This document shows, in pieces, positions 7,119 through 51,000 of a stretch of DNA of 64,000 nt (position 1 is its first letter; every line of letters starts with the position of its first letter). The DNA comes from Phoronis australis (lineage: Eukaryota > Animalia > Phoronida): the NCBI GenBank assembly GCA_002633005.1, contig NMRA01000114.1:58724-122723 (forward strand), in the 5' to 3' direction. Below the pieces are notes generated by a model. It saw nothing but the letters and a program-made list of their open reading frames with translations, did no database searches and was not told where the DNA came from. Both the position numbers and the translations under genes were made by a program.

Positions 7119-8053
7119 GTATGTTTTTAAGATGGTATTGCAAACTGATAATGAAAAGTAGTTACAAAAGCAAGCGCCTGATCTTGAAAGCGGCAATGAA
7201 CTTGCGTTGTCAAATAGGTTTCAGCTTGCCTCTCATTCAGATGAGAGTGGCATTTTGGTCTCTCAAGGATTTGGTAGCTCGTGGCTGCTCGAGACTATGG
7301 TCGTCAAATAAAATGACACCACTATCACTAGATCTTAACAATATGTCCAGATATCGCACCTATCTTGACAGGAATAATTTGCTAACAAATGCTTAACGGT
7401 AATTCATGTAATTCAAAAGTTTGTAGTTGTGACGGGAGATGAGGATCACGCCGCTTTGAACGTGAGCTGGAATGATACTATTCCTGGATTTTCCAACGTG
7501 TTGAAGAGAGCTTGTTGTGATCGTGTACTGAAAATCGCGAATGAAATGTTACGTAAAAACGCTAGAGCTCAGCACACTTGCTTAAAATATAGCCCTTACC
7601 TTTAGAATAAAATTTGTAAAATTTCATTCAAGATTAGTAAAACTCAATTCCACATAATTGTTTGTAAAATTGTTAAAAAGTAAAGCGTCAGTAATCAAAT
7701 GCAAAACGAACAAAAATATGTATTTCCATTTGCACTGTTTTCTTCTTCAGTTAGAGTGACGTCATTTTAACCTAAGTGTCGTGCGACAAGATCACCTTTG
7801 TAACGTGTATAGATTCCTGGTGGGTTTTCTTTTCTTGACCAGAAAAAACGTCTCCGGTTGATATTCACCGAACTAGAATGATTTAGGTTGGAGGATTGAG
7901 AGCTAGTAGACCCAAAAGCCTATCAATTTACACACAGTATTTCCAAGTTCAGCGTCCAAGCACTCGAAATTCAAGAATTTGGCAAGCTATTCCTTCTCAT
8001 TGCATGTGTTACTTGTTTTCAGGCCAGGAAACGTACTTGAAAATATCACAAAG

Positions 8054-9397
8054 ATGCACTGCTTTGACGAGACCTGCGGACAGAAGTTTTTGTTTTACTT
8101 TGAAGGGACTAATGAGGAATTTGTTCGCTGTGCCTGGCCTAGCAACAACCACAAGTGTCTTCTGATTTTTCGTGGAGTTGTCGCGTTGTACGAAATTGTT
8201 CTTCTTCTAGCTGGACCGTATCTTTTTATTATCTTTTTCGAATTACCCTCGAGGGACGCCTGGAAATACTTCATATATTGGGACACTTGGCAGAGTATCC
8301 TAGCAACGACGTACTTCACTCTTGCTTTTGCGACACAACTGCACGATAATAAGATCAGACGACAATCTCAGGTGGACCCTGGAACACTTAGTACAATTAG
8401 CACGAATGTTCCTATCGATAATGAACGCCACTTGCGAAACAGTTGGCAATCGAAGAAATCATACGACAGCACTAATCAGTCCTCAGGAAAGGGAGAGAAA
8501 ACTACAAACTCGTCACGTTCTTTTTACCGTTCATTTCAAAGTGCCTCTTTCGGACCTCTTAAGTGGTACAATAAAATAAAATGGGCTCTTCTCAACGTAT
8601 GCATCAACATTGGGGTCAATTTGATTGGCATCTCGGCATTCCTCAGCATAGATATCGGTAAAAGACCAGGCGCCGTCTTCTATTTTCCACATTACCACCG
8701 TATCGCGATCACTTTCGTTTTATTGCTGATTGAGATGTTTCTTGTATCGTATCCGATATACGTGCAACACCTCTGGTTTGCTGAAGCGTTTGCGTTGTCG
8801 TATCTCACGTTTTCCACGGTGTACCTGCTGAACGGCGGCACCGATCACTACGGTAAAAACCGGTTGTCAGTTCTCTATGACTTTCAACAACTTGAGCCGA
8901 CGATTGCACTTTCTATCATTCTTATCTTCGCAGCGCTTCCCACAGGACAGTGTTTCGGTGTTCTTGTAGTTTACCTAAGAAGAAAGCTCATCACGAGGAT
9001 TTATGAAATAGATGACGAAGACGAGGATGAAAAAAGCCTGAATCAAGAGGACTGTGACGATGAAGGTGAAGACAACACCTCTCTGTACGACAGAGAATTT
9101 GAACGACGGATGACGATGATAATGACTAAAACTGACAAGCCGTTTATTAAAGGGGGCAGACGGTCACCGGAGAAGTCGTCTTCTCCAAGGTCTAGCAAAG
9201 CAAGCAAGCGATTGTCAAGCAAGACGCCGTCGCTGAAGAAAGTCTTTCAAAACTTCAAAGGGAAAAAATCAAATGACACGCCGGTTACGGAAACTAGACG
9301 ATCTTCGACGGATGACCCTTTTATTGTGTCAGATCAGGTAGAATACAACACACTTCAAAAGCTTCCTGTAGGTGAAAAACGCCTTGATAGTGTGTAG
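8054..9397 (+). CDS. Protein rolling stone-like multi-pass membrane protein (FAR-17a/AIG1-related); single coding exon, 447 aa
   Basis: About six hydrophobic segments. Motifs FVRCAW, WKYFIYWDTW, LKWYNKIKWALLNV, LLIEMFLVSYPIYVQHLWF and YLTFSTVYLLNGGTDHYGK resemble remembered rolling-stone family motifs. First ATG is at 8054 (the track start at 7979 is TTG, upstream of a splice acceptor). Long acidic then Ser/Lys-rich C-tail. Confidence 0.8.
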   Translation: MHCFDETCGQKFLFYFEGTNEEFVRCAWPSNNHKCLLIFRGVVALYEIVLLLAGPYLFIIFFELPSRDAWKYFIYWDTWQSILATTYFTLAFATQLHDNKIRRQSQVDPGTLSTISTNVPIDNERHLRNSWQSKKSYDSTNQSSGKGEKTTNSSRSFYRSFQSASFGPLKWYNKIKWALLNVCINIGVNLIGISAFLSIDIGKRPGAVFYFPHYHRIAITFVLLLIEMFLVSYPIYVQHLWFAEAFALSYLTFSTVYLLNGGTDHYGKNRLSVLYDFQQLEPTIALSIILIFAALPTGQCFGVLVVYLRRKLITRIYEIDDEDEDEKSLNQEDCDDEGEDNTSLYDREFERRMTMIMTKTDKPFIKGGRRSPEKSSSPRSSKASKRLSSKTPSLKKVFQNFKGKKSNDTPVTETRRSSTDDPFIVSDQVEYNTLQKLPVGEKRLDSV

Positions 9398-9899
9398 AAC
9401 AGCCTTCTGATTAACCATTAAAATTGCATGAATTGAATCTTAAACCCAATCATCCAATTTATATTTCCACGCCGGTTAAATACATGTATATACTTATTAG
9501 ACACTCACAAGTTTATGGGCGGTATCCCCACTGTACTCTGATTGAATTTCTATGCTCGACCGATGGTGCTGAAAGTGTTAAAGTGTCTACACGGTTAGCA
9601 AAACGTCCCTGGTCGGAGTCCCGGTTGGTTCAAAAACCTTTTCAGACTTATGATCATTTGGTCACGTGATTTGGCCAAAAGCCGTCGTTTTGACCTGGCT
9701 TAAAAACAAGTGCAATCTTTTATTTAGTTATTATACCCTTCTTGGGAAAGGTTGCTGAATTCTTTAGCCCTTCAGCTAGGCTACGTTGTATTGCTAATGA
9801 CACTTGCCATTTAGACCAAGATACTGTCCACAGTCACCGCTGCTTCCGCTTACCTGGTCATCTCACCCTTAATCTTCTACACAGATGGATGAGTGATTC

Positions 9900-10260
9900 C
9901 ACAGGGAATGTTTGAACATCACTCTTTCACTTCTGTCCGTAACAGTAGGTTCCACCGAATCCCCAGACCAAGTTTTCGCTTTAAAAGCTACTTGCACAAA
10001 CCATGTATAGAATCCTGTAGCGAAGGTAACGACAACAAAGGTTCAGACAAACTTTTGTAGCCAGGTAGGCTAAACTCCTTATTCCTTGGTACTGGGCTTT
10101 TGATCCACGTGACTGCCAACAGATAACTGCCACAGGCGCAACTGCTTGCTCTTGTGTATGATCATCTCACTTCCACTTGAGACGCGGCAGAGTACCGTGA
10201 TTCTTCAGAATAAATGTCCACAGTAGAAGTTGCTTGCACACTCACCGTGTGATGAAGGTC
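9900..10260 (-). mobile_element. Possible decayed LINE (CR1/L2-like) endonuclease fragment
   Basis: The minus strand near 10030-10120 reads LAVTWIKSPVPRNKEFSLPGYKSL, reminiscent of the APE ITETWL...IPGY segment. Surrounding frames are broken and the boundaries are uncertain. Confidence 0.25.
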
Positions 10261-10867
10261 CTTAGCCAATTAACCCACATTCCTCTGTTCTCGATGCTTG
10301 AGATTCGCTCCAAGGTAACACTGTGATATGTACCGCGAGTGACCACAGACACACAACTGGGTTCTCTGGTCTGGTTATCTCCTTTTTTATATCTACCCCG
10401 CAAAGTAAAGTGATTCCCGAAGCAAGTGTCTACAGCATAAGTTTGTTTCTCTCATAGCATTAATTGGGAGAGGTGATGCCTCACTCAAGAGTTAAAACAT
10501 CAACTGTCCGACTTCTGAAAATACTTCAACAGTTAGTTTTAGAACGTCAGCTCGTCCAGAACACGAGTCCGGCTACTGCCGAGTGGTCATTTGAATGAGA
10601 GGGACTTAAGACTGAAGACAGATTTTTTTTTCTTACAGTAGCTGAATAAAGGTTTAGCCATGTAACGTATCAGATTAGAAATAATTTATTAAAATTATAT
10701 CAGTAACTAGAAGTTATGATAACCAAGAGACTTTGCACTTTAGCTCAACTATTTTTCAAAAATAATTGTACGGAGCCGAAAATCAAATTTCTGTTTATTT
10801 TACTTAGTCAATTATCATGAAACAGGCCCCTTGGGTGCGTTTCATGAAAAGTGACTTTAAAGTTTTT

Positions 10868-10907
10868 TGGACAATTTCATGGTCTTAAAAGACCATGAAA
10901 TTGTCCA
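10868..10907. repeat. Perfect 19 bp-arm hairpin inside MITE-like sequence
   Basis: TGGACAATTTCATGGTCTT-AA-AAGACCATGAAATTGTCCA, next to TTTCATGAAAAGTGA, a motif whose reverse complement also occurs at ~45347-45361. Confidence 0.85.
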
Positions 10908-12086
10908 CGTTGATACCATTTGTAGGCTAAGTTAAGAACGAAGATGAAACTTAAAATAAAAAAAGTTCATAATGTTTTTTGGGTTTAAATATTGCAAATG
11001 GAATATTTTCCTGCTTTGTACAATAGTTTAATTTCAATTACATCCGAGTACATTTTTCCTAAAAGATGGATATGTATAGATTTTTAAAAGCCCAAATAAA
11101 CAATTTCTGAGAAAGAGGAAGCGATCTTTGAACCCAATATGACGAATGTTACCATAAACACAGCTTTGGATAAATCTTTTTTATTCATATATATGCTAAA
11201 GAACCAATTTTAAAAGGGTTTCATTCTTTTATCAAAAAGTGGTCATTTTTTCACATTGTTGGCTCTGATAATCGATGCGTGTGTCTGTGCAAGCGTATGT
11301 TGCATGAGTGTACAGAACACACCAAAATTAACAGATGACCCGGAATTTCCAGTTGTGACGGCAGATAAGCGCCAGTTTACCATCAAAATAGCTGCAATGA
11401 CCCGTCATGACAGGGAAACCGTATTTTATCTGACTTTTGACGTGTACTACATACGTGCACTTAGGTATATTGAAATTTTTAAGAATTATGAGCAATTGAG
11501 CATAACAGTACAACTGTAGTCTTTAATTGAAACAACAAAAAGATTACAACTTTTCTTATGCCAAAGTGTGCGTTCAACGAGTTGGCCAAGCATGCCCTTA
11601 CTAAAATGTCACTGCCAAGATTGCAGAAAATATCGCGAGACATATCTTTATAGGGTTCAAGAATATAAATGACTAAGTATTTGAAGCACGTTGCTTTACC
11701 AACCTACACTGACACACAACTGTCCTAGTTACATCCAAATCATCTTACAAGAAATGAACTGAAATAGAAACAAGAAATTTGCTACCAAGAGGAGAAATTG
11801 ATCTTTTGCCACCTAGTGTGATGTGTACTTTTAGAAGTCATCTATTTTGGATCAACCATAACCGTAAAAATCACACGTGATTTTAGACAATAAGTTACAC
11901 CGACAATGCATTTTAGCCAGTTTATGAACTCCTGCCCTGGGACCAAACTAACACGGTATCCCCTGTATTGTGGCACGGCTTAAGTGGTCGCATTGTGCTA
12001 CGGAATAAAAATCATCATGGGTATTGTTTGCGGCTCGATTTCCAAACTCTTCGCTGCGCACTACTTTTAATAAAATAGATCTCTGA

Positions 12087-15000
12087 CTAAGACGATTTCA
12101 GTAATCGAAAGCCAGCGATTATCACCCCAGACAACAGGACAAGTGTCCCTACTATCCAGCGCATTGGCAACTGAGAACTGGTTTCGTCACCTGCAAAAGA
12201 AAAAGCAACATCGAGAAATTACCTCACCCAGCACCCAGCAGTATAGCAAAACTCGTCATGGCTATATGGCCGTTGACAAAAAACCACATTGAACCAAGTG
12301 TGACCTCTCTTGCACAACTGGTTAAAATGTTCCCGTAGCTTGTTTAAAGGCCATACTTTTAATGCTACTGTAAAATTTGCTGAATTGTTCATTGTCTTTG
12401 TGTTTCGACATACTGTAATCAACAGATCAAGCCAATCCCTTGCTAGTCTGACTAACAGTTTTACATAGAATTTCAGGTTAATGTCGTAACTCACTAAGCT
12501 CAGCAGTGACGGCGTTGGCGGTTCCCTCAGATGGCGGAACCACGATAGGGGCGACGCTGAGACAAGAAAAAAGCGACCGGATGGGGAGTGATTGGTGCAA
12601 ACAAAAGCGGGGCCAGCAAAAACTGGTGACGACTGGGGGGCGATATAAACAGTTGGGGACGAAAGAAAACTGGTGACAATCAACAGGTGGAGCAACTGTG
12701 GGGACTGGAGTTTGGGGGCTTAACATAACTATTGTCGATAACGTAGGGACTGAGACTGGTGGCAACCGGGGTGGTGGGGTGCGTCACGACATTGGTAGCG
12801 ATTGAGGGGGTTGTATCATTATTTTCGCTCTGCGCAGCATTAACCTTAGCAGGTTTGAGCTCTGGGGAAAATCATAATTTGAATCTTGGCGAACACTTGC
12901 AATAGAATATTAGCGTGTTGCATCCTGCCCAGTTTTTTCGATTTCATAAGTAGAAGGAAGACTGAGGTGTGAATCAGGACACCTTGTACAATGTGCAACT
13001 AATTTCTAAAGAATTATTAGGGACCAGTCTCTAAGGGATCTTATTAATATACATAAAGAATACGAAAGCGAGACTATGAGCCGCAACGTGATACACAGAG
13101 CCTAAACTTAAGGTCACAATTTTTTTTGGTATTGTGACCTATAACTTGAATATTTAGGTAAAAATGAAAGGAAGACAATTACATTCACAGGTAATTTTCC
13201 CAAACACACTGTTTGATATACTTGATTTTATTTATCAAAAAGTATTGAAATCGGCTGTGCAGTTCCATTAGAACCACAGAAACACCGTTAAAGGGCCATC
13301 GACTGCATCTACTGTGTGCAGCATCAACAGCGAGACGATGTGTTATCTAAAGCCTAGCGTCCTCCATCGCGTCATATGGTCACTTCCTAAATTATTTTTC
13401 TTCGTGGTGGTCAGTGTTTAGTCGGTGCTTAGAATCTTGTCTGACGACCAGACGACTCAGGTCCCCACTCTCTGCAAATCAGTTTAGCACCGTTTTCTCT
13501 TTGTCAATGAATACGCGAATAACTTTTCAGATAGGTCTATACCTTGAAACCATATGCACGCAATATGTATTATTCAACGCCGTGCGCTTTCGCTTGTAAC
13601 CGTTCATAGGTTAACCTCGTTCGGCCTCCTCCGCGCATTCGGCTTTAAACAAGTAAAAATGTAGTCAAGTTCCTAGTAGTATTGTCTTCCTTCGCTTGAA
13701 CGTCGTGTGATTTGACAAATCTATTAGGTGTCGTTACTTCCGCATTTCAAAAGGCTGTAGGGAATTCATGAACCACCGTTTGTTTACTATTTTGTTATTA
13801 CTCTGAACTATCTTAACTCACATAAGCAGTGTAAAACAAAGACAAGTGCACTGTCTGTAGGATTAGACTTGCATCAGTGTCGCTCATTTAGTACGAGCTT
13901 ATCACCAGAGCAGATAGGAAGTAGGTTTTATGAGTTGTAGTGACTCAGGGAACGTAAAGCAAAAGACAATGGCGCCCAGGGGAACAATATATGCCCTAGT
14001 TGGGAGGCCCAACCCACCTGGCGGCCGTTCTTTATGTTCATTTTCAAATACTGGATCGACTCTTTGTGGTTCAAAAGATTCTGTGCTGACATCTCTTGCT
14101 TGTATTGGCCAGTTGTCACAAATGTCTAAATCTGTGAAGCAGAACGATAAAAATTTCAAGATGAAGCTACACAACTTGAGGTAGACGATACACTGAGGAT
14201 CCCTGTAGGCTACCTCTCAGTAGGTTTTAGCTCGTAATAGAAAGAACTCAATACGTTAATTAAGACATTGTGCGTCTAAGTAAATTCTTCCTCAAAGCCT
14301 ATAAAACGATGCTGGAGGTGCTGTCTACCTGTAAATTCCTAAAGAAGAAGTGTTTGGATGTTGGTTAAAGTACTTTATATACTGCTGAATCAGCACCTTC
14401 CCTCCACAGAACCCGCAAGATACTACTGGAAGATGGATTGAATGGAGGGAATGTGTATCCTTGTTGCTTATGGGTTGCTGATAGTTGAAGTGAGTCGTGA
14501 GTCCAAAGTTTCTCTTGTTTTAAAACCGTGGGACCGTTATTTTATACTAAATCCGCATGAACCTACGTTTGAATGACTCAATCGCGTTCTGACAGACTGC
14601 GAAGACGAGAAGCTAACCGCCTAGGTTGAAACACAAGCGAAGTCTCGCTCACAGTTACGAGCGTAATAATACGGGCTTCACTTTCACCAGCACAACCCAC
14701 GATGTGTAAGTCCTCGCAGCATGCAGTGCGTGAGGTAAGCGGCGAAGACGAAGGTAGCCTGAGAACATCAAATCCATAGACATAGATGTCTATGATCAAA
14801 TCTCTGTCGTTGGCTCGTTCTGACGGTACGTATAACATGTACGCTGTTTTATTACAGCAAACGTTTCTGGACCTATGTACTGTATGAGCTGAGCTATTGA
14901 TTACTCGAGAACGACAGCTCAGATTCCTAAGGGTTTTCTAAAAAGACTGACGCATAAAATGTGACGCCGGGACAAGCTCACTTTTAGAGCCTAGTTTCAA

Positions 15001-16622
15001 GCAATAATGCACTGTCAATTTTTTGAAGTCTTGAAATCAGCTCAAATTTCACCAAGGAACGATTTGAGATAAATGTTATAACGATAAGGAAAAGTGGTTC
15101 AAATCAAAGTTGTTTTCTGTGATGGAAGACGGGGTTATAGCGGCTTAAATTGAATGAGTTTGAGTGATCTAACTGCTGTCCGTAGATCAAAACAGGGTAA
15201 ATCCATTTACTGAGTGCATAGTTTCATCGTCAGAGAAACATTGCTTATGTTGCCTAATGCGTTCTGTCCCTCCACGGTGAACGAGTATTCAAACTGATTT
15301 CAACACAGTAGTTTACGGGTAAGAAACTAGTGCTTTCCAAATCGTCCTTTACCTTAAGCAATGTTTCGGAACGAAGTGGCACGTATCAAGTCCATTACGT
15401 GATTCTAGACAGTAATGTTTCACTAGCTATATAGATTGCCATTCCTTTGCCTTATATCGATTAGACCAGAAAGCTACTATCGGCCATTCAAAAAATAGGT
15501 AATGCATCGACAGCATATATTGATATTGAACACCTCTGCTAAACACCTTTCCAACCACACAACTCATTACGCTCTCATATGGTGTACGTATAGTTAAAAA
15601 TGTATTAAATATAAATCTCATGTATGCCAAATCTAAGATCAAATTAATTAGTTAGTCTAAATTGAGGTGTTGCCTTGCACAACGCACGAAGATCACACAA
15701 TAACGAAAACCAGGTGTCATTTTGTCATTCCACCGCATTACCACAGGCTTACAATACTTGTATAAACCTATGTGTAGAACTAAAGTGAATTTGATAAGTA
15801 CAGACAAGCATTTCTGTGGAGAAAGCTCACTTCTCTTCTGGGTGTCTGTGGGATTTGTCTATTCTACTCAAGACAACGAAGGCGTCAGTCACACGTCGTG
15901 TGCAAAGAATTAAGAGATTGTCATTTGTAAGGAATTGAAAGTTCATTTCTCATGAAGATCAAGCTCAGCGCCTAAAATGGCAAGCAGTGCCAAGTAGTAC
16001 GAAATGTTAGTTCTTTCAAAGATCCAAAATCTTCTCAAATTTGATAAACTAGCAGTTTGAGACCAATTTCATAAACGGAGATTAGTGACATCCATTTAAG
16101 TGCTTCTTTTTTCGCCAGAGGAACTTTAATTGTGTTACCTATTGCATCCTGTTCGTCCATGGTAAAGCCTGATGAACTGAACGTCTGTTGTAGATGTTGA
16201 TTGTAGTAGCTACTCTGTCTCTCTAAACCAGAGATCGCTCCTAATGAATCCAGCCTGTGTCCCTTTTGTTCCAGTACGTTTTTTGTCTCCGGGTAGTACG
16301 GTTTCAATTTTTTATGATAAGACTTTTCTGACAAACATTTATCCAAAGCTGTGTACAATACGTGCTTCAATTTCTTTTCCAACACATTGCACAGGCTTTC
16401 GCTCATGTATACCAAACACACGCGACTGTTGTGCAACAAATATTCAATCTTTTCCATTTCATACACGCATGTGTCCGGAGCACATGTTGGGTCGTTATAA
16501 AAACTCCCATTTAAGCGTTTGTTCGACAGTTCCGTGCGGAATGCCTCGACGCCGTCCATGTCATCTTCGTGGAATAACAGAACGTAATCGAAGTTGAATA
16601 CCTGGTTGTCGTTGTTAGACAT
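12087..16622 (-). CDS. TICAM (TRIF/TRAM)-like TIR-domain protein with predicted C-terminal tail anchor
   Basis: Exon 16622-16139 has FDYVLLFHEDD, IEYLLHNSRVCLVYMSESL, VLYTALDKCL, KLKPYYP and LGAISGLERQSSYYNQHLQQTF, which parallel remembered TRAM TIR motifs. Phase-1 exons follow at 14131-14018 and 12190-12087 (DETSSQLPMRWIVGTLVLLSGVIIAGFRLLKSS*), all with canonical splice sites. Minimal product 233 aa. An extra exon region at 12861-12495 is unresolved. The TIR call is firmer than the exon linkage. Confidence 0.7.
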
Positions 16623-17340
16623 GACTGGAACAGAAATGTGCAGGTAACAAACTCTTAAGCATCCAAACTCAAGTTCAGCACAATTTTCGCGAGGGAAACT
16701 AGTGTTTCCCCAGTCCCAGAGGCATTCAGTTAACTAGAACGAAAACATTTAATTTATTCGTAAATCGCCTAAATTGGCATTGCATCAGGCCCCAGGCATG
16801 TACGTGACTCTAGATGCGCTTATACTTAAAACTGTCACAAGCTATAGATTGTCACGCTTTTCATTCCTTTGCCTTATATCGAGAAGACCAAAGAGCTCTT
16901 GTCGGCCATTTTCTTGTCCGATAGTCAAATCAACAGGTATACATCGGCAAGAATGAAGAAGAATCCACGAAACCACTGCAATTCCTCCAAACGCAACCCA
17001 ATACACTCTCATGAGGTAAGAGTAACTGTTATGATTGTATTAAAATACCTCATGTTAAGCCTAACCTAAGCTGATCTGCTCTTTGCTTACAGGTGTATAG
17101 TCTACTTCAGAGTACTCCCTTGCAATAAACACTTCGGTCAAACAACAACAATTAAACATCAGTTGCCATTTTCACTTCATCTCACAGTCATAAGACCTAT
17201 AAACCAATGTTAGTGCTACGAAAATATAGTCGATTACTAATAAGAACAACTTTGGACGTAACTCACTTCTCTTGAGCTCCTGGTATGTTAGGGCAATAGC
17301 TATTCTAGTCACAACAGTAACAAAGGTGACAGACACATCA
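15285..17340. repeat. Diverged direct duplication (~15285-15900 vs ~16655-17340) flanking the TIR exon
   Basis: Colinear shared words GAAACTAGTG, TACGTGAxTCTAGA, CATTCCTTTGCCTTATATCGA, TCGGCCATT, CTCACTTCTCTT and CTATTCTA at an offset of ~1.4 kb. Confidence 0.8.
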
Positions 17341-20300
17341 GAAAAAATCCCGGGTCGACCGGATAACGAATAAGCTATTTGATTAGGCAGTGTGACGTAG
17401 TAAGCTAATTGTTCCGTTTTCTGTACTCGAGGTCGTGGGCTCATATCCCAATGGTCCCCAGTGCTAAACCCTCGAGTCAGGTTGATAAATAAAACATTTG
17501 GTTTCACGTGTTTCGTGCGGCGAACTACCTGCCCTGTTTTTTGTATTGCGCAATAATTTGCTCCCTATTACTAGATGCCTTACTCTTCATTTGTTAGAAG
17601 ACTAATGAAATGTAACTTGAACTCTGACTTAAAATTCTTAACTCAGTGAATGATACTCTCGAGAGGCACAAAAGGAAACGCGGTGTTAACAGTCTACTCA
17701 CGTACTAAAATATATTCTAATGTATGGACGCTGATTTCTTTGTGTTTTTTGTGGACAATACTTTTAGATCTATTTTTTCTTAAAGCCCCACCAGCTATTT
17801 ATTTGTTTTCAAGGACATGCCAACAGTAACCGTGGTGCGGCAGTATGCAGTCATCATAATGCAATTCTAACTCGATAAGGGTTTGAATTTCTAATCAATA
17901 CAGTTTTTAGGTCACTAGTGTTTACTTAGTCGGGAACACTTGAAATGAAAAGAGAAACTGCGTTTTCCAGGAATTTGGTATCACGTGATGCAGATTTTGA
18001 ACAACAATACGATATGGTGTGTTTATCATAATGGTACGATTGTAGCTACCTAAAGCCGCTATACCAACCAAATACTGTGGTGTGGAATTGCCCACCAACT
18101 TCTTGGTAGTCCACTGATCATCCAAAGCAACGTCGTCAGTGGCGTTCTAATTTTTTGGTTAGAAATTTGTTAATAAATTGCCTGTAGCGGAATTTTCCTG
18201 ACGGTCATAGTGCCTTGACTACTGGACTAGCCTGTCGTCAAATGCAACTTGTAGGGATACAATCGGCGTGAAGATGACTAAAATGCCAAAAGTTGTCGTG
18301 AATCAGACAACACTTCAAAAGTTTTCTCAGACAACACTTTAATAGTTTTCCAGAACTTTTTCATAAATTTGGTTCGATTTTCTTACGTGCTTGTGTTTTT
18401 CTTTTGCTAATTTATTTTTTGGCAAAAATCTGCGAGACCAGGGTGCTCGCCTTTCCCGGCTACTGAACTGCGTCACCTTCAGATACCACCTCAGTGGCAA
18501 TTTCACTTAACAGTCAGTGAATTTCGGAAATAAGGAGTAACTACCAGCAACACTAGCTTAACACTGAAAACATTGGAAATGTTATCACTTATGATGATTA
18601 CAAAGTTTTTTTGATTTCAAGTGGATTTGGCAGTTTAGTAATTCCGAGTTTATGCGGCGAATGACCGAGTTCACTCGAACTCAGCGAGGGACTCACTCGG
18701 TTCAAATTACTCTAATAATGGAACCATTCTTGCACATCTAAAAACTTAGGTTTACGCTCAATCAAAAGTAATCAAAAATTAACGTTGTTTCTGGAAGATA
18801 AGAGGAATGCAAACCCACTCGGTTTTAGTACCAGCGGGAATTAATCTCGTCATTTCTGGAAATCCTTGTTAGCGTCGCACAGCTGTCTTAATTGTTATGA
18901 GAACCCAAAATGAGACAAAATTAACACAAATCAACGTACTTCGAATTAAATATTATCAGTGGTATTTGGTAAAAAAACAGCGGTTGTGCTGCGGCTTTTT
19001 GACAAACTCTCAACGGGGGGAGGGTCAGTTGCAGCTTCAGCGATAGGTTATAGATAAAACAAATCCTTAAACGCTACACGCTATGTAGCCAATTAGAAAA
19101 CTATGTAAACCTAAATACGTGGTACATGGACAGAGTAGTGAACAGTTTATAAATCAAATCTTTAAAATACTTTACAACAATAATTGAAATTAATTTGCGG
19201 ATCACGAGTGAGTAGAAAGACTCAGTTCATGACTAGAATGGCACCAGGGTCCTGTACATCGCCCCGACTCACCCGGACTCGACTCAAAACTGGATTTTAC
19301 CCCGGCTATATAGCATCTGGCTAAAAACGAAAATCGAATTAGGCCTTTTACTCTCATGAAATCGGCCTGATAATTTTCTTTACTGTGAACGGATTAGATT
19401 TCTGTACCCAGAAAGAACATCTACTTAGGAAAGTCGACTTTAGAATTTGTTACTGGGGTTGCTCAGACCTTATAAGCCGTTCAGTAAACATGCTATTTAG
19501 ATGCCGTAGATGCAGGCAGGAGAACTTAGTCACGAAATCGCCAAATCGATTTATATTTTGATTGATGAAATAAAGTAGTGCTAGTCAATATATGTGGAAA
19601 CAATGTTCTAACTTCAGTTACCTTCAATATTTTTTTAAGTATGGAAAATATATAGGTCACCTGACCAAAGAAGTTGTAGCCTTTTTGACTCTGAGAAAAC
19701 ATAACTGTATTTTGTACCAGCAGGTTGTCAACGTACGATTTTTTACTGGCCAAGTAAATTGACAGGATTTGATTTAGCTTAATCATTGCAAAAAGTATAT
19801 TTGTAGAGCGTAAAAAGTGACGAATCTCATTTACAGGTAAGCTTCTGAACTCTGGGCTATATCTGGTGGTCCAAAAGTTATCACCAGCTTCGTAAGTGTG
19901 CCAACTCTCATCTCAGTCTATTGGCAAGGACAGCGGGAAGTGAAACCGGCAGATGGGCCTTTGAAAACTGTAAAATCGAAAATGGCGCATCAGTGGCCCG
20001 CATTGTCTTCGACTTGAGGTTTCGACTCATTTATGTCAATTTTTAAAGTTTTTAAACCTCGATCAAGGCGACTGGTCTGACGCCTGAGTGAAAGGCACTG
20101 AGGGGACAAATCCGTTTTACAGTCCACAACGCCGCGTTCAGCGCACCGACTCGGCCGTGGATACTAAACTCTCAGTTTTGAAGATTTCCGCCAATCCTCG
20201 TTCTGTCACCTGTTATTGCATTATTGGCGTAAATCTTCTATAAGTTAAAGACAGGAATCAACTAAAAACTCACACTCATGTCACAGATTGGACATTATGG

Positions 20301-22425: not shown

Positions 22426-25400
22426 ATGACTGATATTTTGGTGAGGTGGCTGAACGATGAAGTCAAACTTTCTAAAAAGATTGGTGAGTTTGTGTCCCTT
22501 GCATATTTCTTTAAATTGTTTCTTTTGCTCTTCGTCCATGGGGTCCAGGATCTCCAAACTGTTACTGTTCGCTCGGGTCTCAGACTTGCTGCAGGATTCG
22601 AGTAGAAAGGTTTCATTTTCACAATGTTTGGCATGCAGCTGACTATTTTCGTACTCCTACATCTGCAATATTCCCCCTTTTCTTACGGAACAGGTGTGCC
22701 ACCAGGAAGGTGAACACCAGGGTTATCTCGCATACAGGTCTTCAACTTACGTTGTAGGATGGTTGTAGGCAATGACCATCGCCTCTGTTGGCACGAACCA
22801 GAGGCGATGCAGCTCCTATCGGCGCTCTGTACGCCGGAAGCTTTTCGGCAAATTATGCCTCGCACCGACTAAAGCATCAAAGTCACGCTGTTATAAATAC
22901 CTTTTGCGTATAGAGGGACACCTTAGGAGGTTGGCGGTGTGTTTAATTCCTTCCAACTCGAACAAATACTTCCGTTATCAAACTTTTTGAATCATGGACG
23001 CCCTGGATTATTGGGAACCCTCTTTTCGAAATAGCCTGCAATCAGAGCTGTGTTGTTCATACTCCTATAACTCTTTTCTGATGTAGTATGTAGTATGACA
23101 AAAAGATACAATTTGCAAAATAAACCAGTTAAGGTCAGTGAAACAGGAACATGTTCCCTCTGTCATGTGGGGTTGAGTCCTACGCATTATACATTCAAGC
23201 GGTTTCCGTGAAGATTCAATTCTCATCTTAACGCCAGTATGCTATGCTTTCAGACCAGAATGCATTTGCCAAAGAGTTTGCCACTGGTTACCTACTGGGA
23301 GAGGTGCTCCATCTGTATCAGATGCAGGATGATTTTGACCAATTTTCACAGAGCAAGTAAGTATACAACCAGTAGCTACACAGGGGACTTTCTGTGAGGT
23401 GTTACTACCATATCTAAAGCCATTGGTTGTCTTTAAAAACTAAGTTGTAGTGCATTAGATTCATATTTTGGTAACACTGACGGAAGGTTCTTGTTGATAG
23501 AGAATCACTATTGCGCGTATTAGTGTAAACAATCTCAATAATTCAATGTGCCAGAGCTATTTCATTCAATGACTGGTTTTGGTGACACCTAATGTGGGGA
23601 AAGTAGGAGTTGATACCCTACCAGAGTAAGGTATTGAATGCAAAGTCAACACTAGTTAATGTGCGAGAGTTATTAGATGTACTTTCTACCTATATCTTCA
23701 TTGTGGTCTTTAAAATGCCTTGTCTACTACTACTTGTAATGAGTGGACTTTGGACTATTCTGTGTTTGTCACATGATATTTGCCTCCACCTTCCAGGACG
23801 GCTGACTCCAAACTCAACAATTTCACCCGGCTTGAACCCAAATTACATCTGTTGGGGGTGCCGTTCGATACAAACGTCGCCCGTGGGATCATGACGGAGG
23901 AGCAGGGTGTGGCTACAACTCTACTCTACCAGATGTTCATTGCCATCAACAAGAAGATCAAGGCCAATCTCACCTCGACTGCCATGGAAACAATGAGGCC
24001 AGCGGCCCCAGTGAAATTGGAAGGCATTGAAAGTTACATTTACAGAGAGGTGAGACTAATAGATCTATGTCAGAGTGTTATAGCCAATTGTAACAAGTGA
24101 ACTTATTTTGACATTTCAATGTGAGTTCATTGTTTTTCTGTTATCAGGTGTGAAGTTGACCACAACTTTGTCTATAGTGTACAACACTTTTATGTATAAG
24201 TCAGAATGCATGTCATACAGGCAGAATGAAATTCTAGCAGTTGTGCAAACTCACCTGAATGTCTTTTTGCTTGCTTGAGAAGTTTCGTGGCCAGCGTGCT
24301 ATTTTTGCGTTTTCTTTTTCCTATCAAAAGTCTCACTACCTACTTTCACTTGCAGTTGGATGGAAAGTCTGGTCAAGCATAAATGCAAAATTAGATTTCT
24401 TTCTGTCACATGACCGGCCCCAAAGTATGTGTCTGGCTCAAGACAGCATCAATCTCGACTAAAACTCTGGTGATGAATTGAAAACACAAACAATTCTTGT
24501 CTCTAATGCAATCATGCCACTCATTGTGAAATGTCAAAAAATAAAACATACCTACACGCCTACCAGTTTCTGAGGGGAAAAGGCGGAGCAAGGATAAACA
24601 AAACTGTATTGATTAGCAACTTAATTATATCTTTTTATAGAGACTGAAGCGTTTGACGCCTAGACAGACGGATGACAATCTCAAGTCTCTCATTGGAAGG
24701 TTCCACGAGAAACAGGTACAGATGGAGAGCATTGCATTCAAACAGAGATTTGAAGAGCAGGAGAGACTTCGTGAAGAGAAACAGGCGCAGAGACAGGCTT
24801 TGATTGATAGGTCTAGGCAGGCCCGTGCACGGCAGACAGAAGTCATGGCCAAGATCCAGTGAGTTGAACTTTGACCCAGAGTCTGATATCTGATGCCAGG
24901 AAAAGCACTGAGGGTGGCAGTATATAAGACATAGACTTTAAGAAAGGGGTGTTCAAGGAATGCGGAATCAACATATAGGAGAATGGACCTTAGGTGGATC
25001 TAAGGGGCTTCATGAGTTGCTTAAGCATTTCCATGAGCTAACTGAGAAATGCCTACACCCTAATTAAAGAAGAGATCATCACTTGCCTCCAATCAAATCA
25101 CCTTTGGATGAAAAATTAAATATGAACACTCTTTTGAAATGGTGATATCTAGTTCATGTGGTGCAGGCATTTAGGCAGACTTGGTTAATACTTAAATGAC
25201 TTCCTTCCTAGGGTCTTGCCCTTCATGAAATGTTGCTGAATAACTTTGCCATCTTTACAAGGATATGCATCAACTTCAAACCGAATACAGTGGGCTCTGA
25301 CGATGACGCTTAAAATTGAGGTCCCGCTGCCGTCTTAATAATAACCGAAAATGTGGTTATAATTGATTGAAATAACTTATTATATCAATTAAGCATTATA

Positions 25401-40400: not shown

Positions 40401-43400
40401 TGGAGGCTGTCATGTAAAAGTTCTTAAAATATGGATTCTCACAATACTCACATACAGTGGGAGATAAAATTTGATTTTAATCTTAAGATGGTGGCTTCTA
40501 ATTCCATTCAATCACACCGAATGACCCTACTGAGTTGAGTTCTTAGCGCTGTGCAACATGCATTCAATTGCATTAAATGTGGATGCAGTTGATATTCATA
40601 GTCATACACAGTGCATGTTGCTTTTGATGCATGTCCGTTGCATTATGCGATGTTGAGTAATTATAATAGATTTTATGTTTAGTCTCAACCAGCAACAATG
40701 TACCCCATTCTTTCTTGGACCTCTCTGACAGTAAAGATTAAGTGTTGTAATGCTTTTAAGCCTTAAAAGGCATTTCATATACTATAACTTACCTTCACAA
40801 ATTATTTCAGATGTCTCCCAGAGGGTACTGGGTGGGTAATGGATGGCTACCCTACCACGTACGCACAGGCCAAGATGCTGGAGAAGGCATTGAGTGGCCT
40901 TGATCTTGAGAGGCAAGAGGCAGTGAAGGCCCCGCGTGACTCCAAAGGTCGCATGAGGAAATCGCAGTTGGCCCCTGACCCACGTCCATCATCTGAGAAG
41001 GTGGAAAACAAGTCTGGTATTGATGTGGTCATTCTATTCGACATCCCTGATGAGATTTGTCTGAAGAGGTCAGCTGGTAGGACAAGTAAGCATGGACTTT
41101 GTTTTCACTTATTGGATATTGCTAAAGCTAGCATTATTAAGTTGTCTTTTAACAATTTAGTTCTTAAATAGTAGTGGTGGGGTCAATTTCAGATCATCTT
41201 CATCTTATTGTAAAGGAAGACACACCAAAAATGATCACAAAAGGAGACTTGAAATTTGCCACCATGATTACTGTATGCAGGCGGATTGTCAAGTCTTGGT
41301 AGCTGAAATAATGACTCATGATGTGTTCTCAGCCATCATGGCAGCTATTAACCACAGTGATGAAGAAACAAAATTTTGTCTGATTACTTCAGGCATGTAA
41401 TGTAACCAAGGCAACTGCTCATAATTTGTCCCATCGTACCACACATTGAACGTCTTTCTCTTGCTTTCCAAGAACAAGTTCAAGCTGACCAGGAATACCA
41501 GCAAGAGTTCAATCCCCCACCAGATGGTGCTGCGACAGGTGTGAACAAGGTCGAGAAGGTCGTCGCCGTGGAAGACCCCGCCCATGACATGGAACAGGCC
41601 CAGCACCGTGTCACCGGCTTCCTGGATGCCTGGCCCAAACTGGAGAAGTGGTTCACACGGTTTGGCACCCTTCAGAAAGTAGATGCCTCTTTGCCGCCAG
41701 AAACAGTTTATCTGGAGACAGAAAAAGTATTGGAGGATACGTTGCAGAGGGTAGGTTATTATGGGGCGTTACAGCAGAGGTTTAGTCAGGAGAAGACGAT
41801 AGGCTATCTGATAGGGATTGTTTCACAATGGGAATATTTTTAACTCTTTAGCGTAAATGACTCACTCTAGATGTCTGAAGATTGTCTGCAAGATTATGTC
41901 TCAGTGATGGAGTGCTTACGTTTTTTGTTTCATGCTCAGAGAACAAATTACGTTATCTGGCCCAACTTTTTTAAAGGAGTGCTTCCTGCTTGTTTATCCT
42001 GACATGCAGTCATACACAGCTAGCTTGCCAGCCCAGTTCCCTGTTCGATGACCCGATTGTCTGGTCAAGTGCAAAATTGCTTATGGTCAAACATCTTAGT
42101 GTTCAATCTTCATGACGAGAATGATGAGAAGAGTCAGCCTAAGGTGTCTCATTTTAATCAGACTATTTGTAAACTATATTTTGTTTGATGTACCTTACAG
42201 CTGAAGGGCCCACCTGTGGAAGAAAGTATTACCATAGAAACTGAACCAGAGAAGCCTCCTGAACCCCCTGTTATAGAGGAGCCCCCACCTCCTCCTGAAC
42301 CACCCAAGGAAGAGGATAAACCATCCACGCCCAAGAAGCGCTCTAGATCAGGTATTTGGTTTATCCTCATTATGCGTTGCTTTTGAAAATGAAGGGGCAG
42401 TGTTCCCTGAGTAACTATGTCTAAATGGCTTCTTTGTCTGAGTGTTTTTGTAGTAAAATTTACATTTAGCAAATCTAAAATTAGCATCAACTGAGCCTTG
42501 AGTTTCGTGTATGTCAGTTAAAATTAGCTTCAAATTAAAAAAATCTTGTTCCACAGACTGTATCACCCTACCATTCCCTTTTCTCCTGAAAACCTTTTCT
42601 CATAATCATTTTCTTTTTATCCACAGAAACTGTATTGTGACACATTTCATTTCTCGTTAACAAAACTTCTTTACATACAGAGAGCATTGTATTCTCTTTG
42701 AGCAGTTGTTCAAAGTGCACTAATCTTGTATTATGCAGGATCAGGCAAGTCCAGATCTTCGTCGAAAGGCTCGGGTCGCGGAAAGTCTCCCAAAGGCAAA
42801 GAACGAGGAAAGTCACCAAAAGGAGGCGATAAAAGTCCAAGCCCTAAGAAGGACAGCAAGAAAGGAACTCCCAAATCTAGCCGAGGTGTGCAGAATTTAA
42901 ATGTTACTGTTCACTGAATGATTTGATCATTAATTTTACATTTTCTACCACACGCGTTTTTGTAGCACGTAATATGTTTTTTCACACAATAAGGGCTGCT
43001 GTTTTAGTCTGATTGGCACAAAGCAGTTGTTGTATAATGTTGTCAAAGTCTGTTAATTTTAGTTGGAACATGGCATAAAATTCCAAAACACATATAAATC
43101 AAAATGGAACATAACGAATTGAAAGTACATTTTAGATCATATTTTCTGACGAGTAAATGCAAGAAATTCCTAATCTTATACACCATAACCTAACAACATG
43201 TGAACATGCTGTATTACTGTGGTAATTATTAGTCTGGGTACTAAATTGTTGAATAAAATTTTTTTTTTTTGAAACACATAGCACATGTACTAAAAGTTAA
43301 CCGTTTCTCTGACGTAGCTTCTCCTGTTCATGTCAATTTCTATTTTAGGCCTACTCAAAGGTAAACTATAGTATGCATGCTTACCAAGCCAATACTGAGC

Positions 43401-48000: not shown

Positions 48001-51000
48001 AGCCAGGAAATTCAAAGTTGAGGAAAAATTGAAATAAGGTGCCGACGCAACTTTAAGATTGATCAAGCTTCATCTAACAAAACATAATTATTATTAATTT
48101 AAAGTAATTGACACACAAGCACATGGGAGTTGTTTTATCTTGCAATTACTAGAAAGCTGTTTCATTGTTTTCTTGTTTTCTTTATTGATATTTCTTTCTC
48201 TGTCTTGAATTAATGTTAAGCTACTGTCAAACAATGTTTAAGAAACATTTTGTTTGTGACTACAGGCAAAAAGTACAGTCAGGAGATTTGGATTTTATTT
48301 TGACTTGTTAACCTCTGCCTTGTGTGAAAAAATGGCTTTTGCTTTTGACCACTTATAAGTCTCATCTTGTTCCTTACTAAGATTAAGACTGATTTCTTGT
48401 CTTGATATGAACGAAGATTATTGTTATTAGGTTGCGTGTCATGCTGGGGACGTTTCTGTCACCCGAAGGCAGTACCACTCCCCCCAACATCCCCTCCCCC
48501 GCCTGTTGAATTCTAGGTGATTTTTAAATGTAATCAATTTGAATCCAAACAAAGAATGCGGGTGTTATAATGTTTTGAAGGCTGAATGTGGTTTGCAATA
48601 TCTTTAGATTGCACTGTTTACACCCTTACTAGGCTGAGACAGACAGGTTCCAAGACACAGTGAGGTTGTTGAAGGATTATTACAAAGGAATGGAAGGTCA
48701 CATACCTGATGAACTGGTTGAGGACTATGCCAGAATAGCACTGATAGATGTAAGTGGCAAAAGGGGGCAGGTCTTTTTTAATGTAAACCTTGCATTGCTA
48801 GTAATGTGATACCAGAATAGCACTGATAGATGTAAGTGACAAAAGGGGGCAGGTCTTTTTTAATGAAAACCTTGCATTGCTAGTAATGTGATACCAACTT
48901 ACACATAACGGAATGCATAACTATAATTATACAAGGAAGTCAGTTGATAGATTTTCTGTTTCAGAGTTAATTTTTGTTGAGAGTAGACAACAGGTGTAAT
49001 TTACATTTTACTATGTTGGATCAATAAGTTGATATCAATAAAAATCATTATATTCATAGCATTGCTCTTTGTATTTTGTAAATTTCCCTTGTAAGCTGGT
49101 TTATTGATTAATAAGCAGGTTACCAATGGTCTGAGCTGAATCAAGCTTCATATTACACTGGGTTTGCAAAATTTAGTTTAAAAAAATAAATGAAAAACAA
49201 CTGTGTTGCATGACATTGCTCTTTTGCAATGACTTTCGAATCAGCTATACATTGGGACGTTCGTTTAGGCTAGTCATTTGTATGATGCTGGCTGCTGATT
49301 TTCTTGGTTTAGGCAACAGAAAGTAGTGAGAATTGGAGGTGTTTGTGTACCATCTCTGGCAATTCAACTCTCATAGTTGTTGTCCAGTCACTTCTCATAA
49401 CTGGTAATGAGTTTTTGTAAATATGGTCATACCAGCCTCAAATTAGTAAGACCTGACACTACTCTATTCTTGTTACACAATACTAGTCTGACTTTTAGAT
49501 TTTGAATGCATCTCAGTGTCCACAATTCTATAATCAGCTTGAGACAACTGCTTTGACTCACTGTTGAATGCCATGTTACCGTACACTTCACATTTTTTTG
49601 ATTGATCAGAATTTATTGACATTTTGATATGAATCCATATCTCTATTATTTGTTATGATATGATAAGAATTCAATGGCTGGTGTAACTTTTCATGCAAGA
49701 TTTATCATGAATTAACTTGAAGATAATTTAGGATGATTTCTTATCACTATGCAATGGATTCATATCGACCAACATGGGGATGTATATGTTCTTGTATCCA
49801 ACTTGACTCAATCTCCTTTCCGTCACAGCTGCCCCCTACTGAGCGACCTGGGTCTCCAGCCAAGAGTGTAGCGAGTGAGTCCACCAGTACTATTCAACAA
49901 AAGGAGGAGCCACTCACACCTGTTCCCCCCAAGGAGGTCAAGTCGAAGTCTAGCACACCATCTGGCAAGAGGAAACGTAAAGGTTCTGGCAAGAAAGATT
50001 CAGATAGTGCCCCTCCCACGCCACCACCAGCCCCCGCAGATGGAGAGGAAGAGAAGAAAAAGTGTGTAATATTTTGAGAAGGGTGTTGTTGGTAAAGGGG
50101 CAGTGACTGGCAACCTGGGTGTGCATTTGTGACCAGGCATCAAAGGCTAAAACTGAGGGTCAAAACAAGGCTGAGTGCAAGTTTGAGGCAATGATTGTTT
50201 TAAATTACATCTCCAGTCAATGAAGTCCACTTCAGACATGGAAGACTTGGAGATTGAATTTTAATTTCTTTGAACACCATTACGCAGACCTGATACAATC
50301 CAAGTCTCATTTTTAAAATACATGGATTGCATCTCCTCTATCACAGTCCCACTAGTTATTCACCGAGGGTGCTTACACATTTTCTTGTTGTTAATATCTA
50401 TGGGTATCCAACATTATTCTGAGATTTTCTTTACCAAGGATTCCTCTTGTGCCGCGGCGACCAGGCTCTGCTGATATGACCACGCAAGCGGCACCGCCTC
50501 CTGGTGGCAAAGATAAGAAGGCTGACAAAAAGGGAGACAAGAAGAAGGGAGCCCCTCCCCCTCAAGAGGAGAAGGTGGAGAGCCCGCTGCCCCCTATGGA
50601 CCCCGATGACAAGCTATTGCATGATGCATATGTCAGTGGATGCAATTTCTGTGCAAACATTGTAAGTATTGATTGGCTGTCATGCAGGTGTACTTGTGCT
50701 GCTGATGGATTGGGGTTGGGTTGGGAATTATGGGTGGAGCTTGGAAATTTCCTGGAAAACGTCACCTTGATTAAACCCCCTATGAAAGGATTCATTCAAG
50801 CTTTTCTTAAAGGTATTGTGTGTTACCACATACTGACTAGAGAAAGGCTTTGTGTAAGTAGTGATTCATGGTTATCGCTTCAGCTAAGTTTTAAGGATGA
50901 GCTGCAGCTATATGAGTGATAGCTCTTCAAAAATTAAATATTTTTCTTTAATTTATTCGTCCATTATGAGACAAATCTAAGTACAATCTGTTCTCAGGTT

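Follow-up and report, generated by a model that had tools for sequence, protein, structure and literature searches.

We asked if a short gene in the genome of Phoronis australis (Phoronida) encodes a TIR-domain adaptor that is held to an organelle by its C-terminus. The locus lies on the minus strand of a window of 64,000 nucleotides (nt), i.e., the whole stretch of DNA that was analysed (assembly GCA_002633005.1, contig NMRA01000114.1, positions 58,724 to 122,723; coordinates below are those of the window). A first-pass annotation, made from the letters alone, had read positions 12,087 to 16,622 as a TRIF/TRAM-like (TICAM-type) TIR adaptor with a tail anchor in the style of MAVS. The gene is spliced and expressed; its product of 233 amino acids (aa) very probably has a TIR fold, for which comparisons made with a predicted model support TRAM and TRIF as the nearest solved relatives, and a linker joins this domain to a likely C-terminal tail anchor. 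We put the chances at about even that the protein is a TRAM-like TIR scaffold on the cytosolic face of an organelle, its tail anchor substituting for the N-terminal myristoyl group of TRAM.

The gene model is real. Three minus-strand coding exons (exons 2 to 4, Table 1) have GT-AG ends and join in phase 1/1 into a frame of 702 nt (233 codons and a stop), bearing out the in-phase splicing proposed earlier; a 5' non-coding exon, set off by a further intron at 17266-16625, had been overlooked. RNA evidence was taken from one contig run and three raw-read runs of a single study (X2, X3 and X4; 18-19% of each run was read), all with the same species label. The reads carry numerous differences from the window and may come from another population or a closely related animal; their placement covered 11200-18200 and 15950-17750, such that an acceptor beyond would not appear as a joint. 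Both junctions by which the first-pass annotation had suggested checking the gene were present: 16139>14131 in 27 reads from two of the three raw-read runs (X3 7, X4 20), and 14018>12190 in 6 reads, also from two (X2 3, X4 3; listed as 12187/14015, a cut shifted by +3). The 5' intron was removed in 15 reads, distributed over all three raw-read runs, and in one contig. First mates aligned to the plus strand, as is usual for RNA transcribed from the minus strand. Across the 16139 donor, sense depth dropped from 27.1 to 0.11 in X4 and from 7.9 to 0.87 in X3 (X2 was without coverage at this end of exon 2), so that read-through to the stop at 16035, named in advance as the result that would overturn the model, is at most minor. 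All 20 loose ends at 16139 in X4 carry the start of exon 3; the depth seen at 16011-16071 is two-stranded and repeat-derived. Over the placed stretch neither donor had a competing joint among those listed, and sense coverage ran through exon 4 at least as far as 11200 in each of the three raw-read runs. The model is weakest at the junction into the tail exon, with its 6 reads, and we infer from the shared exon 3 that all three coding exons lie within one mRNA. Among the coding differences listed for X4 there were at least 7 synonymous and at least 12 non-synonymous codons, with no stop and no insertion or deletion listed, which fits a maintained, fast-changing gene.

The ATG at 16622 is the likely start because 5' sense coverage fades near 17350 (depth 0.5 or less in 17353-17413). 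Exon 1 is continuous in frame with this ATG, and the sole upstream in-frame ATG, at 17444, was rejected as the source of an N-terminal extension because it sits in a repeat, past a gap in sense coverage. Two side observations concern this end of the gene. Exon 1 contains a short upstream open reading frame (17311-17338, minus strand, ATG 17338, 9 codons) that is out of frame and could tune translation. Sense RNA depth of about 2-4 was also seen within intron 1 at 17109-17266 (minus strand) in all three raw-read runs, with no joint listed; this could reflect retention of the intron or another boundary of the 5' exon.

The predicted TIR fold of the N-terminal domain, which we regard as very probable, is drawn from feature, profile and model comparisons that agree with the TIR claim of the first-pass annotation. 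In the ESM Atlas the ten best family-bearing matches all belonged to a single clan, TIR (scores 0.87-0.92, recognition 3046); the matches were unnamed or TIR clusters only, and the result was graded a lead. Bacterial TIR_2 domains were used as helpers: of 25 matches 19 were taken on, 18 entered a profile (one was cut by a stop), and 15 were used in alignments (one apparently frameshifted and two atypical sequences were left out). Against the 18-domain profile the query scored 2.6 bits, a value reached by 6 of 1000 shuffles, compared to -0.6 for the reversed sequence, and the match was in register over alphaA-betaC. An AlphaFold model guided by the 15 aligned rows had a mean predicted local distance difference test (pLDDT) of 68.6 and a predicted template modelling score (pTM) of 0.62, and showed TIR-type secondary structure in the flavodoxin-like order betaA-alphaA-betaB-BB loop-alphaB-betaC. 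This is support, not proof: the model was steered by a TIR alignment and thus indicates that the sequence is compatible with a TIR.

Likeness to TRAM and TRIF was seen when the guided model was searched with Foldseek. The first three ranks were human TRAM 9dki (expectation value (E) 4.7e-4, the sole match below 1e-3), human TRAM 9dlg (4.9e-3) and TRIF 8rlm (1.0e-2), with SIGIRR, MyD88 and bacterial TIRs behind them at E 1.2e-2 and above. When run as a sequence profile, the helper alignment favours bacterial TIRs and SARM1, with neither TRAM nor TRIF among the best 60 of 142 PDB matches; the TRAM/TRIF ranking is less circular for that reason. The structural alignments begin at query 9-10 against TRAM 77-78 (offset 68), which brings the acidic triad that follows betaA opposite the EDD site of TRAM (Table 1), a surface proposed for binding TRIF (PMC4544004; the site is treated also in PMC10412839; here and below, papers are cited by PubMed Central number for what their accessible portions state). 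Pro49 occupies the position of the TRAM BB-loop C117, followed by Asp rather than Gly, and at the TS site Y90-T91-A92-L93 aligns with TRAM Y154-T155-S156-L157 (3/4 identical; the Thr is kept, the Ser is Ala). In a comparison made by eye, post hoc and unscored, against human TRAM (Q86XR7, sequence from the PMC9440496 supplement), four colinear blocks at offsets 68, 66, 64 and 62 had identities of 6/11, 2/12, 3/4 and 6/22; the first is query 13-23, including the EDD triad, and the last is query 127-148, ungapped. Val88 occupies the position of the NADase catalytic Glu, a column in which 14 of the 15 bacterial rows have Glu, such that the domain is predicted to be a non-catalytic TIR, with NADase activity absent.

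These assignments have to be set against a number of results that weigh the other way. Pfam returned no TIR family match (TIR or TIR_2) for the 233-aa protein up to E 1, NCBIfam and PADLOC returned no match to it, and phmmer against PDB sequences returned neither TRAM nor TRIF even at E 10. The Atlas matches share at most 167 of 256 features with the query, and one third of shuffled proteins likewise yield ten of ten from one clan. An hhalign comparison to the bacterial profile covered 62 columns at E 0.097 with a probability of 0.6% (a control segment gave 10 columns, E 0.5). The single-sequence AlphaFold model had a pLDDT of 39.8 and its two fold searches were uninformative; the guided model is pushed toward the TIR fold by its own alignment and is of low confidence beyond residue 119 (pLDDT below 50 for residues 120-152). 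By shape only, the Z-scores of bacterial PdTIR (9.5, root-mean-square deviation (rmsd) 3.7, 111 residues aligned), TLR10 (9.4) and TRAM (9.3, rmsd 3.5, 104 aligned) tie, a second shape search giving a similar picture, and identities in the structural alignments were only 11-15%. An acidic triad after betaA is found in TIRAP as well, and of the BB-loop motif EDFxxPG of the TRIF group (group 37, PMC7075850) the Pro position is kept, the EDF and Gly not. The TICAM-type TIR of the first-pass annotation thus keeps its top Foldseek ranks and motifs in register, with the tied shape scores and the silence of phmmer counting against it; ancestry among TICAM/TIRAP-type adaptors is, on balance, moderately favoured.

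Searches of sequence databases were otherwise empty. Of 8 candidates of near length none reached E 0.01; 188 candidates among longer proteins included none at E 10; and 1.84 billion representatives gave 0 at E 1e-3. Homologues of the domain were absent from plasmid, prokaryote-genome and metagenome searches, tblastn found no paralogue of the gene within the window, and no Rfam family was found within 9000-19000. Matches to RNase J, TetR_C_8 and Asn-tRNA ligase were rejected as above any threshold. The empty searches do not show novelty because the databases cover this animal poorly. TICAM TIRs are themselves known to score weakly on Pfam, with human TRIF reaching TIR_2 at E 6e-3 and the crocodile sequence not being significant (PMC9440496 supplements).

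The C-terminal helix is a likely tail anchor, as predicted from hydropathy and charge (Table 1). Residues 211-227 have a mean Kyte-Doolittle value of 2.26 over 17 aa (1.8-2.3 across windows of 17-21 residues) and form the sole strongly hydrophobic stretch in the protein; the best window in the first 190 residues is 0.75 or less. Arg stands on both sides of the helix, two basic residues fall within the 6-residue tail, and Met209 is Lys in the RNA reads, an additional basic residue on the cytosolic side. MAVS and other tail-anchored proteins share this arrangement, one hydrophobic helix at the C-terminus followed by a short tail, and the exon that encodes it here is joined in RNA. As a chance control, 4 of 277 acceptor-like sites on both strands of the window would give a comparable hydrophobic terminal peptide, the site at 12190 being among the four. 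The first-pass annotation had rightly placed an Arg-flanked helix at the extreme C-terminus, although its "moderately hydrophobic" understated the helix. For yeast, a grand average of hydropathy (GRAVY) above 1.75 is given for anchors of the endoplasmic reticulum (ER), with 2.4 counted as highly hydrophobic, and lowering the charge of one tail from +4.9 to +2.9 to +0.9 shifted the anchor from peroxisome to mitochondria to ER (PMC5450235). The charge here, +2, falls between the mitochondrial and ER examples of that study, and peroxisomal targeting requires a higher one (PMC5450235). By these two measures the tail would be borderline between mitochondria and ER, and a peroxisomal location is unlikely; the organelle anchor proposed earlier survives as a single predicted membrane anchor, its MAVS-like targeting as this borderline case. 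A side observation is that read-through of the exon 3 donor (13902-14017, minus strand) would likewise add a hydrophobic stretch at the C-terminus, with its end at 13902; one contig and sparse RNA coverage at 13540-14007 may represent a minor alternative tail.

Where the first-pass annotation had extended the MAVS parallel further, the rest of the protein did not follow it. A pattern search of all 233 aa (patterns from PMC9440496 and PMC6125299) found no pLxIS, no RHIM and no TRAF6 site, PxExx(acidic/aromatic). No CARD stands at the N-terminus, which is the alpha/beta TIR-like domain, and judging by RNA depth no further coding exon fits upstream. The linker opens with DLDIC, as had been remarked, without the pLxIS serine; DLDIC was rejected as a pLxIS motif because the published consensus needs a phospho-serine. 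One Px(Q/E)xxD minor motif for TRAF2/3 occurs in the linker at 14108-14091 (definition from PMC6125299) and was set aside, since 14% of linker shuffles have one and 35% have any of four TRAF motifs. The N-terminal Gly2 by which TRAM is myristoylated (motif from PMC9440496) is not present, residue 2 being Ser.

As to how such a protein might act, its location, partners and pathway can be proposed by analogy with TRAM. The tail would insert post-translationally, the mitochondrial outer membrane and ER-derived membranes being about equally likely, and a linker of about 55 residues would hold the TIR domain facing the cytosol. There it could seed TIR-TIR assemblies that include a TIR receptor acting upstream, and bring in a second adaptor with the output motifs, in the way that TRAM recruits TRIF. 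The protein itself is predicted to be neither an NADase nor a direct IRF activator.

TRAM (TICAM2; 9dki, 9dlg) is also the closest known system in plan. At 235 aa it is nearly the same size, it consists of a TIR and a membrane tether with no other domain and no NADase Glu, and its EDD site, YTxL helix and C-terminal block are in register with the phoronid protein. They differ in that the TIR here is N-terminal and the tether a C-terminal helix, whereas the TRAM tether is an N-myristoyl group; the BB-loop region here ends Pro-Asp (Cys-Gly in TRAM), the TS site is TA, and there is no TRAF6 motif. TRIF (TICAM1; 8rlm, 9dk8, 2m1x) shares a Gly-to-Pro spacing of 10 through betaB and the BB loop and a domain end of TF; the phoronid protein is without the N-terminal domain, pLxIS, TRAF6 sites and RHIM of TRIF, and TRIF itself is without a tail anchor. 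Among invertebrates, amphioxus bbtTICAM is likewise a TICAM-type TIR adaptor, but it signals via a RHIM, which is missing here (review PMC6043800). MAVS, whether CARD-Pro-TM (TM, transmembrane segment) in vertebrates or CARD-Death-TM in oyster (PMC5557890), has the same succession of N-terminal interaction domain, linker and C-terminal anchor, and differs in having domains (CARD, Death) and a pLxIS that are not found here. Molluscs commonly have TIR proteins in which no known partner domain accompanies the TIR (abalone PMC11103948, oyster PMC4346834, Aplysia PMC9334734). In an abalone annotation nine proteins are entered as "TIR domain and TM domains", and one further TIR has TMs on either side (PMC11103948); such molluscan TIR+TM proteins are annotated as TLR-like, with the domain order unstated, and in the accessible text none is called TICAM-type or tail-anchored. 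We found no description of a TIR-linker-tail-anchor architecture in the open-access literature (most subscription papers lie outside that coverage), in keeping with the earlier remark that the architecture was not recognised as described; the abalone listings qualify it. A further partial precedent would be bbtTICAM if, as may be the case, it works on endosomes and has C-terminal membrane segments.

Four other explanations were weighed against the TRAM-like scaffold. The foremost, which we hold to be possible but doubtful, is a membrane-tethered decoy whose TIR domain would sequester the TIR domains of TLRs or adaptors on the organelle and damp NF-kB signalling. The lack of a credible output motif and a BB loop ending Pro-Asp, not Pro-Gly, would suit a decoy, as would the rank of the zebrafish SIGIRR TIR, fourth in Foldseek; invertebrate TIR-only proteins have been proposed as competitors of MyD88 (PMC4346834, PMC11103948), and amphioxus TIRA and TIRC act as inhibitors (review PMC6043800). 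Yet TRAM, a positive bridging adaptor, is likewise without pLxIS and RHIM, and the TRAM-type EDD and YTxL surfaces are retained.

A second explanation, quite unlikely, would make the protein an analogue of MAVS, i.e., a mitochondrial hub that clusters by TIR instead of CARD filaments and recruits TRAF2/3 through the linker. The pLxIS serine is missing, the one Px(Q/E)xxD motif that could serve the purpose is at chance level by the shuffles given above, and the tail hydropathy falls within the yeast ER range; what remains on its side is the shared topology (N-terminal interaction domain, linker, short basic-flanked tail) and the need for an alternative hub in some molluscs, abalones and Aplysia being seemingly without MAVS. 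The protein is under half of the usual MAVS length.

A third explanation, very unlikely, is that the domain has no relation to TICAMs, being some other TIR or flavodoxin-like domain (or no TIR), with the likeness to TRAM due to convergence among acidic non-catalytic TIRs. Such a domain would agree with the lack of a significant sequence match to anything, with Z-scores that tie across kinds of TIR, and with reviews that, in their accessible portions, report no TRIF homologue outside chordates; but weak Pfam scores are known for TICAM TIRs (human TRIF, crocodile), four blocks are colinear with TRAM, and Foldseek put TRAM and TRIF first despite bacterial helpers. That read-through at 16139 yields the main product, a soluble protein with only the TIR domain, and that the tail exon is a minor or spurious join, is most improbable, for the lower count at the exon 3-exon 4 junction (6 reads against 27 upstream, and unlisted in X3) and low intronic sense depth (2.0 in X2 at 15950-16010) are outweighed by the collapse of depth in X3 and X4, the lack of a competing joint at either donor, and sense coverage through exon 4 into a long 3' untranslated region (UTR) in all three raw-read runs.

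Table 1. Coordinates, in the 64,000-nt window, of the exons of the TIR gene and of the features predicted in its product.
Feature	Coordinates	Strand	Remarks
Exon 1	17267..17352	-	5' exon with approximate 5' end, likely non-coding; 15 reads and a contig show joint 16624/17267
Exon 2	16139..16624	-	ATG 16622 (A at -3 after splicing); coding part 16622-16139, 484 nt; residues 1-161; TIR-like domain
Exon 3	14018..14131	-	114 nt; linker rich in acidic residues and proline; residues 162-200
Exon 4, coding part	12087..12190	-	104 nt; residues 200-233 and stop
3' UTR	11200..12086	-	at least about 0.9 kb, end beyond the covered stretch; continuous sense depth in 3/3 runs
Predicted TIR-fold domain	16179..16598	-	about residues 9-148; most like TRAM/TRIF; from Atlas, profile, alignment, model and fold searches
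Glu19-Asp20-Asp21	16560..16568	-	in register with TRAM EDD site 87-89 at offset 68
Predicted tail-anchor helix	12108..12158	-	residues 211-227; Arg210 before; 6-residue tail of net charge +2 after

Two other genes were seen near the TIR gene. A long single open reading frame (7910-9397, plus strand, 495 aa between stops), which matches Pfam Rost (rolling stone) at a sub-threshold E of 1.1e-5, is convergent with the long 3' UTR; it had no homologue in the protein database, and neither it nor the TIR-like protein was present in the protein collection. Divergent from the TIR gene is an exon at 23777-24100 (plus strand) with a Pfam CH_2 match (E 3e-9) and probable later exons, e.g., 41406-41843 and 50395-50919; presumably this gene resembles SPEF2 (sperm flagellar 2). 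At 17414-17483, 16026-16074 and 15028-15141 there are short pieces of transcribed repeats, where RNA depth is high on both strands and loose ends occur, and a 49-nt direct repeat, 86% identical, occurs in intron 2 (15440-15488) and intron 1 (16862-16910).

TICAMs are stated to be absent outside chordates (PMC6043800, PMC9334734, PMC4346834), next to which stand a weak TRAM match in Mytilus and earlier cnidarian reports (PMC3308963). Abalones and Aplysia appear to be without MAVS (PMC11103948, PMC9334734); the accessible part of PMC8998645 lists no RIG-I-like receptor that is headed by a TIR, and TIR-STING occurs in oyster and an annelid (PMC6723221). MAVS is seemingly missing from several molluscs, and for the relay of antiviral and MyD88-independent signals an expressed TRAM-like TIR protein with a predicted tail anchor is a concrete, testable candidate. 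Because the protein escapes Pfam and every sequence search tried, similar adaptors may hide in other invertebrate genomes. If it is a decoy or is bound to the ER, it would be a modest addition to the many orphan TIR proteins of invertebrates. It could instead be a true non-chordate adaptor of the TICAM lineage on the mitochondrial outer membrane, a TIR-based platform standing in for MAVS where MAVS may be missing; we consider this unlikely, but if true, the MyD88-independent adaptor branch would predate chordates and would have begun tail-anchored.

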